Assembly: GCA_963826115.1 (NCBI GenBank)
Contig: CAWGVS010000005.1
Location: 1,088,001 to 1,152,000, forward strand
DNA: 64,000 nt
Source of the DNA: an uncultured Candidatus Rokubacteria bacterium
GTDB lineage: Bacteria > Methylomirabilota > Methylomirabilia > Rokubacteriales > DASRDR01
Reading direction: 5' to 3'
Shown piece after piece: positions 21,392 through 26,333 of the stretch. The first letter of the stretch is position 1, and each line of letters begins with the position of its first letter. The notes under the pieces are model-generated. The model was not told the origin of the DNA. It saw only the letters and a list, made by a program, of their open reading frames with translations, and ran no database searches. A program made the translations under genes and the position numbers.

Positions 21392-21597
21392 GTGTCCGAT
21401 CATACCTCAAACCGAGGCGCCACTGGAGCGCGGAACCGGCGCCCCGCTCGGCCCGGACGGGATAGGATGCCAGGACGGGCCCGGGAGGTCGGCCGGGCCG
21501 CGGGACATCGTCGCGGCGGTGCATGCAGAGCCGCAACCCGCCCCTGGAGCGGATGAGATTGGACGACCCGCTGCACCGGAAAGCCAGCCGCTTTGCG

Positions 21598-22595
21598 ATG
21601 GTGGGCTCGGGACGAGCCTGGCTCGCGTCCTTCGCTGCCTTCGTCCTGGCCTCCTTACCCACAGCGCCGCCGACCTCCGCCCAGCCCGGAAAGGTCTACA
21701 CGGTCGGCCTCGTGACCTCGGGAACTCGGGATCAAGCCGCGCCGTTTCTGAGCGCGCTCGAGGGCGCTCTGGAGAAGCTGGGCTACGTGGAAGGGCAGAA
21801 CCTCGCCTCGAGTATCGGTTCACGGGCGGGAACAGCGAGCGGCTCGCCGAGCTGATGGCCGAGCTCGTCCGCCTGAACGTGGACGCCATCGTCGCCGGCA
21901 GCAACCAGACGGTGGCCGTCGCGAGACGGGCGACCGGCTCCATCCCCATCGTGATGGCCCTCGCGGCCGATCCCGTGGGCGCCGGCTTCGTGGCGAGCCT
22001 CGCACGGCCCGGAGGGAACGTGACGGGGCTCTCCGTCGACGTCAGCCCCGACATCGCGGGCAAGCGCCTGGCCCTGCTGAAGGAGATCGTGCCCACCGTA
22101 TCCCGCGTCGCGGTTCTGTGGGAACCCGCCTCGCCCGAATCGTCCGCGTACTGGCAGGCCGCGCAGCGGGCGGCCGTCCCTCTCCAGCTCGGTCTCGCCT
22201 CGTTCGAGATCAGGCGGCCGGGCGACGTCGACGCCGCGCTGGAAAGTGTCGGCCGCGACGGTGCGAACGGTCTCTCGGTTTTCTTGTCATCCCTGACGTT
22301 GCGGCACGTGTCCAGCGTGACGGCCTTCGCGCTCCGCCGTCGGATCCCGGCCATCTACGGCAACCGGGCCTTCGCCGAGGGCGGCGGTTTGATCTCCTAC
22401 GGCCCCGACCTGACGGACTCTTATCGCCGCACCGCGACCTACCTCGACAAGATCTTCCGTGGAAGCACGCCGGCCCAGTTGCCTGTGGAGCAGCCCACGC
22501 GCTTTGAGCTCGTGCTCAACCTCAGGACGGCCAGGGCGCTGGGCCTGACGATTCCGCCCGCGGTGCGGGCCAGGGCCGACGTGGTCATCGAGTAG
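21598..22595 (+). CDS. ABC_sub_bind-type substrate-binding protein (apparent -1 indel near 21806)
   Basis: LGYVEGQNLA|LEYR, DPVGAGFVASLARPGGNVTG, LPVEQPTRFELVLNLRTARALGL; one C missing in GCC-CTC. Confidence 0.88.
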
Positions 22596-22657
22596 CGGCG
22601 CGTTCGGGGCGCCCGCCGGCACCGGGTTAAGATGTATTGGACAGGAGGAGGCGACAA

Positions 22658-23407
22658 GTGGCCGACAAGAAAGCGATTCTCTACCACCGCCCCGGCTGAA
22701 GCTCCTGCGCCAAGACGAGAGAGTTGCTCTCGTCATGGGATGTCCCCTTCGACTCGGTCGACATCCAGGCCGTGCCGGAGGCGCGCGCCGAGCTGGCCCG
22801 CCTCGGCGTGCCGGGGGTCCCTGCCGTCGTCACGGCCCGGGGCGTCGTCCACGGCTGGAACCCGAAGGCGGTCGCGGACCTGGTGGGCGTCCAGTACGAC
22901 GGCGGTGAGCGCCTGTCCCCCGCCGCGCTGGCCGCGCGGCTCGACCAAGTGCTCGGCGCGGCCGGCCGGGCGGTCCAGACGGTCGAGCCCGAGCACCTCT
23001 CGCTTCAGCATCCCGGCCGCGACCGCTCGCTCCACCAGCTCGCCTATCACCTGTTTCGGCTGAGTCTCGCCTTCCGCGACGCGATGGTCGAGCGCCGCCT
23101 GCTCAAGGCGTGGAACGACGAGCTGGCCCCCGCGGGGCTACCCGACGGGCCCGCGCTGGCAGGCTACGGCGCCGCCGTGCGAGGCGCGCTGCGCGCCTGG
23201 TTCGAGACGGAGGGCGCGATCGAGGGGACGGTCGAGACCTACTACGGTTCCCAGAGCGCCCACGAGCTGCTCGAGCGCACCACCTGGCACGCGCTCCAGC
23301 ACCTGCGCCAGATCCACGCGCTCCTCGATGACGCGGGCGCCTCGCCGGGCGAGCCCCTCGACCCCGCGCTCCTGGACAGACTGCCCCTGCCCAAAGCGAT
23401 CTGGTAG
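22658..23407 (+). CDS. Probable selenoprotein: UxxC glutaredoxin domain fused to a DinB-family domain
   Basis: SD AGGAGG, GTG 22658, ADKKAILYHRPG-TGA(22697)-SSCAKTRELL, in frame with ORF 22724; GVPAV; LAYH and WHALQH. Confidence 0.85.
22700..22740 (+). promoter_or_regulatory. Bacterial SECIS-like hairpin
   Basis: gacgagag-AGTTG-ctctcgtc (22714-22734); loop starts 22 nt after the TGA with GU in it. Confidence 0.7.
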
Positions 23408-23438
23408 GCGCCGCCGCGCGGCGCGCGACGCCGGCGGG

Positions 23439-26333
23439 CTAGTGCGGGAGCGCCTCCCAGAGGAGCTCCGCGGGATGCTTCGCCACCCGGCCCGTGGTGT
23501 GCTCCACCTGCTGGCGGCACGAGATGCCCGGCGCGCAGACGGCGACGTCCGCCGCCGCGGCACGCACAGCCGGCGCCAGGCGGCGCTCGGCGATCTTCAC
23601 GGACAGGTCGTAGTGCTCCGCCTCGAATCCGAACGAGCCCGCCATCCCGCAGCAGCCGGCGTCGACCTCGGTGACCTGGTAGCCCGCGGCCTTCAGGACG
23701 GCCACGGTCGGCGCCGTCCCGACCATCGCCTTCTGGTGGCAATGGCCGTGGAGGAGCGCCGGCCGGCCGTTGGCGGCGAACCGGGGCCGCTCGCCCTTCG
23801 CCCACTCCCGCTGGAGGAACTCCTCGAGCAGGAAGCTCTGCCGGGCGACCAGCCGGGCGTCCTCGGTGCGGACCAGCTCGGGATACTCGTCGCGGAGCGT
23901 GAGGAGACACGACGGCTCGAGGCCGACGATCGGCCGCCCCTGGCGCGCGGCGGGCGCGAGCCGGGCGACGTTGTCGGCCGCCACGCGGCGCGCCTCGTCG
24001 AGCATCCCCTTCGAGATCATCGGCCGCCCGCAGCATCCGCGGTCGGCGAGGCTCACGCGGTACCCGAGCGTCTCCAGGAGCCGGGTCGCGGCAATGGCGA
24101 CGTCCGGCGTCTGGTACGTGTTGAACGTGTCGTGGAAGAGCACGACCTCGCCCTTGGTTCCGGCCCCCTCGGGCCGCCGGCGGCCGAACCACCGCTCGAA
24201 CGAGCGCGACGCGAAGGCCGGGAGCGGGCGCCGCCGGTCGATGCCGGCCACCCGCTCGAGGAGCCAGCGGTGGGGCGCCGACCGCACGATCCAGTTCGAG
24301 ACCGGCGCGAGCGCCGATCCCACCCGCGCGAGCGCGTGAATCCGCCCGAACAGGCGGTTGCGGAGGGGCAGCCCGTTGGCCCGGTAGTAGTGGGCGAGGA
24401 ACTCGTACTTGATCTTCGCCATGTCGACGTTGGCCGGGCACTCGGCCTTGCACGCCTTGCACTCGAGGCACAGATCCAGCACCTCGTAGAGCCGGCGGCC
24501 AGTGAACTCCGAGCGCGGCACCTTGCCGGAGAGCACCGCGCGGAGCGCGTTGGCGCGCCCGCGCGTCGAGTGCTCCTCGTCGAGCGTCGCCATGTACGAG
24601 GGGCACATCGTGCCCTCGAGCTTCTTCCGGCAGACGCCGATCCCGTTGCACATCTCGATGGCGCCGGCGAATCCTCCGGCGCTCGAGAAGTCGAGGAGGG
24701 TGTCCGGCTGCCACGCCCGGTACTCCGGCCCGAAGCGGAGGTGCTCGGTCATCGGCGGCGCGTCGACGATGTTCCCCGGGTTCAGGATGCCCTTCGGGTC
24801 GAACGCGCGCTTCACCTGCCGGAAGGCGTCGTAGAGGCGGGGCCCGTAGAGCGTCTCGTTGAACGGGCTCCGCGCCCGGCCGTCCCCGTGCTCGCCCGAG
24901 AGCCCCCCGCCGAACTCCATGACGAGGGCCGTGATCTCCTCGGCGATCGCGCGCATCTTCCGGATCTCGCCCGCGTCCTTCAGGTTGATCAGCGGGCGGA
25001 TGTGGAGGCAGCCGACCGAGCAGTGGCCGTAGTAGCCCGCGCGCGCGCCGTGCCGGTCGAGCACCGCGCGGAACCGCTCGATGAACGGGCCGAGCTTCGC
25101 CGGCTCGACGGCCGTGTCCTCGACGAAGGCAATGGGCTTCCGGTCGCCCTTGGTGCCGAGGAGCAGCCCCAGGCCCGCCTTCCGGAGCTTCCAGATCGAC
25201 TGCTGCTCGGCCGGGTCGTAGGCGATGTGGGCCGCGTAGCCGATGCGCTTCCGCGCGCGGAGGTCCTCCAGCGCCTCGACCTTCGATCGCACCTCCGCCT
25301 CGGTCTCGCCGGAGTACTCGACGATCATGATGGCCGAGGGGTCGCCCTGGACGAAGCCCATGCGCGCGCGCTGCTCGATGTTCTCGCGCGCGAGGTCGAG
25401 GATCATCTTGTCGGTGACCTCGACCGCGTACGGACCGGTGGTCAGGAGGTCGACCGACGACTCGAGGGCCGCCTGCAGGTCGTCGTAGTGGATCACGTCG
25501 AGCGCCGTGAACTTCGGGCGACGGACGAGGCGCATCTTCATCTCGACCACCGCGACGAGCGTGCCCTCGGACCCCACCGCCAGCCGATGGAGCCCGAACG
25601 GCTGCGGCTTCACGAGCTCGTCCAGGTTGTAGCCGGACACGCGGCGCATCAGCGTCGGGTAGCGCGCGCGAATCTCGTCGGCGTGCTGAGCGACCAGCCG
25701 GCGCACCTCGCGGTAGATCTGCCCCTCGAGGCCGTCGGCGCGGCACTTCGCCTCGAGCTCGGCCGGCGACAGGTCCCGCAGCGTGATCTCGGACCCGTCG
25801 GCGAGGAGGCAGGTGAGCTCCAGCACGTGGTCGATGGTCTTCCCGTACGCGATGGAGTGGGAGCCTGCGGAGTTGTTCCCGGACATCCCGCCGATCGTCG
25901 CCCGGTTGGACGTCGAGGTGTCCGGCCCGAAGAGCAGGCCCATCGGCCGCACGTGGTGGTTCAGCTCGTCCTGGATCACGCCGGGCTGGACGCGGCACCA
26001 GAGCTCCTCGCGGTTCACCTCGAGGACCTGGTTCATGTACTTCGAGAAGTCCAGCACGACGGCATGATTGACGGTCTGGCCGATCAGGCTCGTGCCGCCG
26101 CCCCGTGGGAGCACCGGGACGTTGTAGCGGTTGGCCAGCTCCAGCACCGCCTGGACGTCGCCCTTCGAGCGGGGCAGCACCACGCCGATCGGCTCGACCT
26201 GGTACATCGAGGCGTCGGTGGAGTAGAGGAGGCGCGAGTAGTCGTCGAAGCGCACCTCGCCCTCGACGACGCGGCGGAGCTCCCGCTCCAGGTCGCTCCC
26301 GATCTTGCCGTTGACCGTTCCGGTTCCGCCCAC
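23439..26333 (-). CDS. FAD-binding/Fe-S oxidoreductase (GlcD-GlcF fusion, YdiJ-like 2-hydroxyacid dehydrogenase)
   Basis: YSTDASMY, RGGGTSLIGQ, SGEHGDG, CNGIGVC, CLECKACKAECP, CCG motifs. Confidence 0.92.
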   Translation of the reverse strand: MGGTGTVNGKIGSDLERELRRVVEGEVRFDDYSRLLYSTDASMYQVEPIGVVLPRSKGDVQAVLELANRYNVPVLPRGGGTSLIGQTVNHAVVLDFSKYMNQVLEVNREELWCRVQPGVIQDELNHHVRPMGLLFGPDTSTSNRATIGGMSGNNSAGSHSIAYGKTIDHVLELTCLLADGSEITLRDLSPAELEAKCRADGLEGQIYREVRRLVAQHADEIRARYPTLMRRVSGYNLDELVKPQPFGLHRLAVGSEGTLVAVVEMKMRLVRRPKFTALDVIHYDDLQAALESSVDLLTTGPYAVEVTDKMILDLARENIEQRARMGFVQGDPSAIMIVEYSGETEAEVRSKVEALEDLRARKRIGYAAHIAYDPAEQQSIWKLRKAGLGLLLGTKGDRKPIAFVEDTAVEPAKLGPFIERFRAVLDRHGARAGYYGHCSVGCLHIRPLINLKDAGEIRKMRAIAEEITALVMEFGGGLSGEHGDGRARSPFNETLYGPRLYDAFRQVKRAFDPKGILNPGNIVDAPPMTEHLRFGPEYRAWQPDTLLDFSSAGGFAGAIEMCNGIGVCRKKLEGTMCPSYMATLDEEHSTRGRANALRAVLSGKVPRSEFTGRRLYEVLDLCLECKACKAECPANVDMAKIKYEFLAHYYRANGLPLRNRLFGRIHALARVGSALAPVSNWIVRSAPHRWLLERVAGIDRRRPLPAFASRSFERWFGRRRPEGAGTKGEVVLFHDTFNTYQTPDVAIAATRLLETLGYRVSLADRGCCGRPMISKGMLDEARRVAADNVARLAPAARQGRPIVGLEPSCLLTLRDEYPELVRTEDARLVARQSFLLEEFLQREWAKGERPRFAANGRPALLHGHCHQKAMVGTAPTVAVLKAAGYQVTEVDAGCCGMAGSFGFEAEHYDLSVKIAERRLAPAVRAAAADVAVCAPGISCRQQVEHTTGRVAKHPAELLWEALPH

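Follow-up and report, generated by a model that had tools for sequence, protein, structure and literature searches.

The question raised by this locus is whether an in-frame TGA, downstream of which gene callers open a short reading frame, is in fact a selenocysteine (Sec) codon at the active site of a longer protein. The locus (22658-23407, forward strand) lies in a stretch of 64 000 nucleotides of an uncultured Candidatus Rokubacteria genome (assembly GCA_963826115.1, contig CAWGVS010000005.1, positions 1 088 001 to 1 152 000); this stretch is called the window, and its coordinates are used throughout unless another contig position is given. A mechanical list of open reading frames (ORFs) starts the frame at TTG 22724, which gives 227 amino acids. 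When the same frame is read from GTG 22658, its single in-frame interruption is the TGA at 22697-22699, codon 14.

The original prediction was that of a hidden selenoprotein, in which a UxxC glutaredoxin (Grx) is fused to a DinB domain, and which standard annotation truncates. All the sequence features that it named (TAAGAT, AGGAGG, GTG 22658, one TGA at the position of a glutaredoxin cysteine, V-P-A-V and a His triad) are present where it placed them, and a 249-residue product results from GTG 22658 to the TAG when the TGA is read through. The motifs of this translation are P12-G13-U14-S15-S16-C17, V54-P55-A56-V57, L-A-Y-H131 and W-H211-A-L-Q-H215. Truncation is likewise seen in public gene calls, as nearly all of 120 listed database homologues are 221 or 227 amino acids long. 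On the evidence given below, we consider it very likely that 22658-23407 is one gene encoding a real Sec-containing Grx-DinB fusion (a statement about its identity, not about its mechanism); the UGA is in all probability decoded as Sec. The coordinates of all features are collected in Table 1.

Conservation of the in-frame TGA

Homologues were sought by a six-frame search over 201 genomes of the phylum, 172 of which gave a match at E <= 0.001. Of the 110 rows that rank highest (E <= 5.7e-62, hand count), 108 cover the full length and contain a single in-frame TGA (106 of 108 when the rows of two unpublished genomes, G058 and G101, are set aside). Of the remaining two, one is truncated at the end of its contig (genome G169) and the other is a second copy in genome G178, which reads R-R-G-C-S-S-C. 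The N-terminus is kept in 29 of 30 fetched loci, and the pattern Y-[HY]-R-[PQ]-G-U-[ST]-S-C occurs in 29/29; an ATG or GTG is located 8-13 codons 5' of the TGA in related loci. In the eight codons 5' of the TGA, most first and second positions vary little or not at all, and synonymous variation is mostly found at third positions (for example CGC/CGG/CGT/CGA and CCC/CCT/CCG), so that the upstream stretch displays conservation of the coding type. This rules out the possibility, raised with the original prediction, that the sequence upstream of the TGA is unconserved.

The residue expected at this site is indicated by homologues. The match to the Pfam Glutaredoxin model (residues 7-58) runs across the TGA, and U14 is aligned with the first Cys of CxxC in solved glutaredoxins. 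Natural Cys forms exist: one of 258 amino acids (P0101) has C-S-S-C at the Sec site, and among 50 fetched full-length representatives 49 have CxxC there and one (P0267) has SxxS. The TGA itself was checked on assembled contigs of four public runs, with no differing base listed at 22697-22699. Contigs of run X1, possibly the source sample, span the TGA with 0 differences over 22550-22881, those of run X2 also span it (both are DNA runs), and contigs assembled from two RNA libraries cover 22680-22739.

The genome, which is 99% complete, contains the machinery needed for Sec insertion. The selA and selB genes are adjacent on contig 8, both above curated cut-offs, with a tRNA-SeC(tca) beside selA (ARAGORN), and selD, also above its curated cut-off, is on contig 5. 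The prediction of a hidden selenoprotein is thus supported by the single TGA in 108/110 best rows, its identical place in 29/29 loci, the Cys homologues and this machinery. The selD gene (contig 5, 561687-562604, outside the window) has an in-frame TGA of its own, so that SelD itself is probably a selenoprotein; selD with an in-frame TGA is likewise found in four Burkholderiales genomes.

A rival explanation holds that the TGA is a true stop, that the product has 227 residues from TTG 22724 or 221 from the next ATG, and that the upstream similarity is a relic. The agreement of gene callers on these two lengths would fit such a stop, and so would the unexceptional energy of the single-sequence hairpin described below. 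However, in a relic residues 5-13 and the TGA would not have survived in 29/29 loci across the order, with a coding pattern of substitution. Moreover, the shortened protein would have to do without the active site, strand 1 and part of helix 1 of its thioredoxin fold, and the Cys forms are full-length proteins read through this site. We regard a true stop as very improbable. An error of assembly or sequencing at the TGA, or its reading as another residue (e.g. Trp) under a deviant code, is scarcely credible, because the same codon occurs in more than 100 independently assembled genomes and recurs in contigs from other runs, selA, selB and further matched genes of the genome have no internal TGA under table 11, and homologues carry Cys, not Trp, at the site.

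A potential Sec insertion sequence downstream of the TGA

A hairpin resembling a Sec insertion sequence (SECIS) follows the TGA. In its core stem 22714-22721 pairs with 22727-22734 around the apical loop AGUUG (22722-22726), and the lower stem has a bulged A. The stem begins 15 nt 3' of the UGA and the loop carries G/U. This hairpin (22714-22734) presumably guides decoding of the UGA by SelA, SelB, SelD and tRNA-Sec.

Support for the hairpin is comparative. In 27 distinct sequences 95.4% of cells pair, versus 90.0 +/- 1.0% in shuffles (0/500 reach the observed value), and only 31-60% of cells are paired when the partners are slid as a control. Compensatory changes occur in two pairs (AU to CG and GC to AU), one of them via a synonymous Leu codon change. 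The median folding energy of the 39 nt after the codon is -18.8 kcal/mol in 29 Sec loci versus -10.3 kcal/mol in 64 Cys loci (those of 81 in which the motif could be placed), with a G+C content of 0.61 and 0.59, respectively; related sequences are not independent in this comparison.

Several observations weigh against Sec decoding guided by this hairpin. As a single sequence it folds no better than expected for G+C-rich DNA (z = -1.33; 20/200 shuffles fold as well), and a scan of 22500-23500 against Rfam matched no family. The two pairs that vary cannot form in 4 and 5 of the 27 distinct sequences; when five loci with broken pairs were folded, a longer lower stem was predicted in place. The hairpin also lies within the codons of a conserved peptide, K-T-R-E-L-L-S-S, so that part of its conservation is explained by protein constraint. 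Finally, Sec insertion as such is inferred from comparison of sequences.

Architecture of the protein

The predicted combination of a UxxC glutaredoxin-like domain and a DinB-type domain that bears a His triad agrees with Pfam, with the modelled fold and with H131, H211 and H215. The N-terminal head scores 46.9 bits against Pfam Glutaredoxin PF00462 (gathering cut-off 22.9, E 3.3e-12, residues 7-58). Its closest solved chains by sequence are glutaredoxin 7c10 (E 1.2e-11) and several NrdH (4hs1, 1h75), whose CxxC is aligned to U14/C17. The AlphaFold2 model of the whole protein, made from a 21-row alignment, has a mean predicted local distance difference test (pLDDT) of 87.8 and a predicted template-modelling (TM) score (pTM) of 0.79. 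In this model residues 5-77 form a thioredoxin fold, followed after a short linker by a bundle of four long helices (88-107, 125-145, 164-182 and 201-225). Foldseek places the head next to NrdH 1h75 (TM 0.86) and BC3987 3zit (TM 0.90), and also NrdH 4hs1 and 4fiw; for the bundle it lists YfiT 1rxq, DR0053 6iz2, YjoA 3dka, 2p1a and 2f22 with probability 1.00 and target TM 0.65-0.80.

Against the DinB part of this assignment stands the Pfam DinB_2 score (PF12867, residues 96-219), 22.2 bits with a cut-off of 24.8; many close homologues do carry a precomputed PF12867 match. The DinB assignment of the protein in the window therefore rests on its fold and on the His triad. Only sub-threshold matches (YruB, NrdH, Uxx-star) were obtained with NCBIfam, from which it follows that no curated family covers the Grx-DinB protein.

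Conserved residues are found in both domains. Invariant in the close family (alignment A2) are H131, H211, H215, R121, R123, R134, R207, R217, H-G-W-N-P (residues 65-69) and the L-P-L-P-x-x-x-W tail. In the wide family (alignments A3 and A5), H211 and H215 are invariant and H131 is at least 90% conserved, while CxxC, the cis-Pro candidate P55, R207, R217 and Q218 are invariant or nearly so. Two statements are strongly supported by these data: Sec14 holds the N-terminal (attacking) position of U-S-S-C in a NrdH/glutaredoxin-like fold, and the DinB/YfiT-type bundle keeps the three metal-binding histidines H131, H211 and H215.

Distribution of Sec and Cys forms

The original prediction also suggested a search for homologues with Cys or TGA at the site; besides the TGA rows and CxxC proteins reported above, both forms were found well beyond the phylum. 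A profile search of 1.84 billion representatives yielded 2420 relatives at E <= 0.001, 199 of them at E <= 1e-30, and at least 527 stretches encoding a relative were found in a collection of species-representative genomes. The relatives bear the source names 'glutaredoxin', 'DinB family protein' or 'hypothetical', and the clusters obtained in an Atlas search with P0101 were all unnamed 'DinB/Glutaredoxin domain' ones. The Cys form is frequent in the Alpha-, Beta- and Gammaproteobacteria, and its cultured carriers include Pseudorhodoferax sp. Leaf274 and Burkholderia sp. L27.

Outside the phylum, Sec forms occur in Burkholderiales (the order of Pseudorhodoferax), where the family is present in 23/201 genomes and 24/31 rows have one TGA; one such locus reads Q-P-G-U-S-S-C-L-K-T-K-E-F-L. 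In 3/5 Burkholderiales genomes checked (G207, G319 and G363) the gene is followed, after 0.2-1.7 kb and in the same orientation, by selA. Two to four separate TGA-containing Grx-DinB copies each were observed in Burkholderiales genomes G363, G207, G268, G216, G324 and G368.

A quick tree places 18 Sec rows of the phylum in one clade (Shimodaira-Hasegawa-like approximate likelihood ratio test, SH-aLRT, 93) with two Cys rows nested inside. The tree was rooted at its midpoint, the truncated calls P0116, P0120, P0102 and P0099 were dropped, and P0199, P0203 and P0267 are outside the alignment. Since it includes no Burkholderiales Sec rows and has a midpoint root only, it does not count the origins of Sec, and a single-origin reading was withdrawn because these rows are missing.

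Two distant Sec members with 28-32% identity, L129 (genome G140) and L130 (genome G051), come from other families of the class, with U retained at its position (R-P-G-U-F-T-C and R-P-G-U-T-N-C, respectively). Another relative, the metagenomic protein P0199 (721 amino acids), is a triple fusion with an MmgE/PrpD-type domain (2-methylcitrate dehydratase family) ahead of the Grx-DinB unit, which may hint at a carboxylate substrate.

Possible functions

The reaction that such a protein would catalyse was considered in the light of the thiol pathways of its host. In the 99% complete genome, none of gshB, E. coli-type gshA, mshC, bshC and egtD was found above cut-off; the gshA model is narrow (among the controls it matches only E. 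coli), so the absence of a low-molecular-weight thiol is not proven. As far as these genes tell, a thiol-dependent transferase would be without an obvious co-substrate here. The genome does contain trxB. Given trxB, the thiol-synthesis genes that were not found and a head that is NrdH/YruB-like rather than that of a classical glutaredoxin, we favour a redox enzyme.

Tentatively, and with less than even confidence, we suggest that the substrate is bound in the metal/arginine pocket of the DinB domain, where the Sec14/Cys17 pair reacts with it, and that this pair is recycled by thioredoxin reductase. In this scheme the pocket would bind the substrate (a disulfide, a sulfenyl or selenenyl species, an electrophile or an oxyanion), and the selenolate of Sec14, on the tethered domain, would attack it. 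Cys17 would then resolve the adduct to give a selenenylsulfide, and the U-C pair would be re-reduced by thioredoxin reductase or thioredoxin, as in NrdH, and not by a low-molecular-weight thiol. Such a protein would be the self-contained counterpart of two-part 'thiol plus DinB transferase' systems.

A broader version of this proposal seems possible, if rather doubtful: the protein may represent a new self-contained thiol-transferase/reductase in which the DinB metal centre is served by a tethered selenolate or thiolate instead of a diffusible low-molecular-weight thiol. It would then be the first DinB/STL selenoenzyme and a convergent counterpart of glutathione S-transferases (GSTs), transferred in some lineages together with the Sec-insertion genes as one of the proteins that pay for their upkeep.

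Some family members speak against tight coupling of the two sites: in the Sec members L129 and L130 the His triad is changed (with Q in place of H211 in L130, for example), and P0267 combines SxxS with an intact triad. Docking of the two domains, carried out on an alignment of natural Cys homologues (A5), scored 0.26 where the mark was 0.32, which speaks neither for nor against contact. The neighbourhoods of the fetched loci weigh against any specific substrate, as no partner gene is conserved across the order; hence no function was drawn from context.

The best-surviving alternative, in line with the coupling of thiol redox to thiol transfer that the original prediction inferred, is that the Sec enzyme is a classical DinB/STL thiol S-transferase, whose metal site would activate a diffusible low-molecular-weight thiol for conjugation while the Grx-like domain would deal with a mixed disulfide or pass the thiol on. 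In its favour, Cys forms are frequent in Pseudomonadota, which are mostly glutathione producers. The bundle resembles BstA/YfiT in fold and in its His triad; as described in one study (PMC5815605), all eight DinB-type proteins of B. subtilis are metal-dependent bacillithiol transferases, and in multi-domain members thiol transfer is ascribed to the DinB domain. This alternative is at odds with the thiol-synthesis genes not found above cut-off in the genome and with a head whose closest relatives are NrdH/YruB-type redoxins. Redoxins of this type are reduced by thioredoxin reductase and are not known to be reduced by glutathione. In addition, H-G-W-N-P stands in place of the glutathione-binding region of glutaredoxins, which we take to be G-G-x-D-D. 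A classical S-transferase is accordingly judged unlikely.

A role in selenium handling, in which selenite, selenopersulfide or selenide would be reduced or trafficked towards SelD, appears more improbable still. It would explain why the gene travels with Sec-insertion genes, namely the TGA in most of the Burkholderiales matches and the proximity of selA in three genomes of that order, and an oxyanion would fit the invariant arginines of the DinB pocket. Yet the gene in the window (contig 5, about 1.11 Mb) is far from both selAB (contig 8) and selD (contig 5, 0.56 Mb), and selenoprotein genes of many kinds adjoin sel genes because the trait is transferred as a unit. We thus retain, at the strength given above, the thioredoxin reductase-linked Sec14/Cys17 enzyme as the preferred reading.

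Features of the locus and gene neighbourhood

Table 1. Position and basis of the features of the Grx-DinB selenoprotein gene in the window
Feature	Position	Strand	Basis or remark
-10-like hexamer TAAGAT, candidate promoter element	22628..22633	+	inferred only
Shine-Dalgarno AGGAGG, six bases 5' of the start codon	22646..22651	+	direct read
Full coding sequence of the predicted 249-residue Grx-DinB selenoprotein	22658..23407	+	GTG start, TAG stop; translation
NrdH/glutaredoxin-like thioredoxin-fold domain, residues 1-77; cis-Pro candidate P55; H-G-W-N-P 65-69	22658..22888	+	Pfam, solved-structure matches, Foldseek
UGA, putative Sec14 (codon 14), first position of the U-S-S-C redox motif	22697..22699	+	alignment with Cys of glutaredoxins and of natural homologues
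SECIS-like hairpin	22708..22740	+	covariation, comparative folding
DinB/YfiT-type four-helix bundle and conserved tail L-P-L-P-x-x-x-W, residues 88-249	22919..23404	+	AlphaFold2, Foldseek
His131 codon, second bundle helix, first of the His triad	23048..23050	+	alignments
His211-His215 (H-x3-H, fourth helix), second and third of the triad	23288..23302	+	alignments
TAG stop	23405..23407	+	closes the 249-codon frame

A scan of 22400-23600 for sigma-70 promoters and terminators called nothing, TAAGAT included. This hexamer recurs 5' of the start codon in the same-genus loci L018-L023 and L025-L027 (L024 ends at a contig edge), and it is from this recurrence that it is considered a candidate promoter element.

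Downstream, a convergent gene (23439-26333, reverse strand, 964 amino acids) is separated from the selenoprotein gene by 31 bases from stop to stop; judged by eye from its translation, it looks like a FAD-linked oxidase with an Fe-S domain. This neighbour is kept in ten same-genus loci only. In 7/30 loci, all seven from the sister family (within L034-L046), an enoyl-CoA hydratase/crotonase-like ORF, named by sequence only, ends just upstream, and in five loci a convergent ORF like formylglycine-generating enzyme lies further downstream. In 16 loci, most of them from one alphaproteobacterial clade (L054-L071), a gene for a short-chain dehydrogenase ends directly before the Grx-DinB gene; these loci belong to a cluster of 30 among 80 loci, six members of which were Pfam-checked. 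Upstream of the gene in the window, an ABC-type substrate-binding gene (21523-22595, forward strand) seemingly occupies two frames, its signal-peptide N-terminus being in 21523-21855 and the remainder in the frame ending at 22595, which suggests a frameshift or an assembly error near 21800-21855.

Implications

Public gene calls cut short a gene that is widespread among soil Rokubacteria-type bacteria and also occurs in some Burkholderiales, and the break falls exactly at the active site. Because of this, catalogues would miss one selenoprotein family and mislabel hundreds of its members as short 'DinB family' proteins. The gene would also link selenium to the DinB/YfiT (STL) superfamily, for which over 30,000 predicted members are given in PMC5815605. 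For at least one branch of DinB proteins the fused redox head offers a handle on their role, and Cys forms are available in cultured Proteobacteria. As the gene adjoins selA in Burkholderiales, Grx-DinB may be among the proteins that justify the Sec machinery.

Comparison with known systems

The statement in the original prediction that no characterised example was known agrees with full-text searches for selenoprotein or selenocysteine combined with DinB or with Rokubacteria, which returned nothing relevant. The word 'DinB' is absent from the main text of a 2026 review (PMC13188914), of a 2022 review and of the deep-Sep paper, and 'YfiT' from the main text of the two reviews; their supplements were outside this scope and a prior listing there is possible. 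According to the 2026 review (PMC13188914), one Methylomirabilota genome is predicted to hold 63 selenoproteins.

The nearest verified selenoproteins are Sec-containing glutaredoxins (PF00462, UxxC), listed as experimentally verified in the same 2026 inventory (PMC13188914). They have in common with the protein described here a thioredoxin fold and Sec at the first position of UxxC. Glutaredoxins are small and single-domain (about 80-90 residues, to judge from the lengths of the matched chains), whereas here a DinB domain of 160 residues is added and the motif is U-S-S-C. The head has its best NCBIfam and structural neighbours in NrdH-redoxin (TIGR02194) and YruB-type proteins (TIGR02196), and its G-W-N-P motif resembles S-G-F-R-P of NrdH. 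The scores of 35.6 bits (NrdH, cut-off 85.75) and 41.2 bits (YruB-type) are nevertheless well below cut-offs of about 86-89, there is no nrd context, and the head is fused to DinB. It would work like NrdH at most and is not filed as a member of TIGR02194.

The relatives of the second domain, BstA/YfiT and other DinB/STL transferases, share the four-helix bundle, in which a single His stands on helix 2 and the H-x3-H pair on helix 4 (PMC5815605, PMC10950700). In these accounts BstA/YfiT binds its metal via H67 (helix 2), H160 and H164 (helix 4), which are the only fully conserved residues in BstA, and EDTA abolishes the activity (PMC5815605, PMC10950700); H211 and H215 have the spacing of H160 and H164 (PMC5815605). 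The differences are a sequence identity of only 14-18%, the covalently attached Sec redox domain and the thiol pathway that was not found in the genome. Canonical GSTs, many of which are listed by Foldseek, have a similar order of domains, an N-terminal thioredoxin fold followed by an all-helical domain. However, the root-mean-square deviation is 12-17 A and the TM score is below 0.4, and as the helical domain is a different fold the likeness is one of analogy, not of homology.

Two further comparisons concern fusions. UXX-star proteins (NF041212, NF041211, NF047338) and the HUGP/GUXX-star fusion give weak matches (32 versus 66 bits for NF041212, the others also far under cut-off) and share a Grx-like fold with Sec in a G-U context; by their family names they end two residues after U, whereas here 235 residues follow. 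In EgtB and LmbV a DinB domain is fused to a second domain that confers specificity, as outlined in PMC5815605, but that domain is not a thioredoxin fold and neither protein contains Sec. Sec glutaredoxins and many UxxC selenoproteins of the thioredoxin fold are thus known, and the Grx-DinB fusion is a variant of them.

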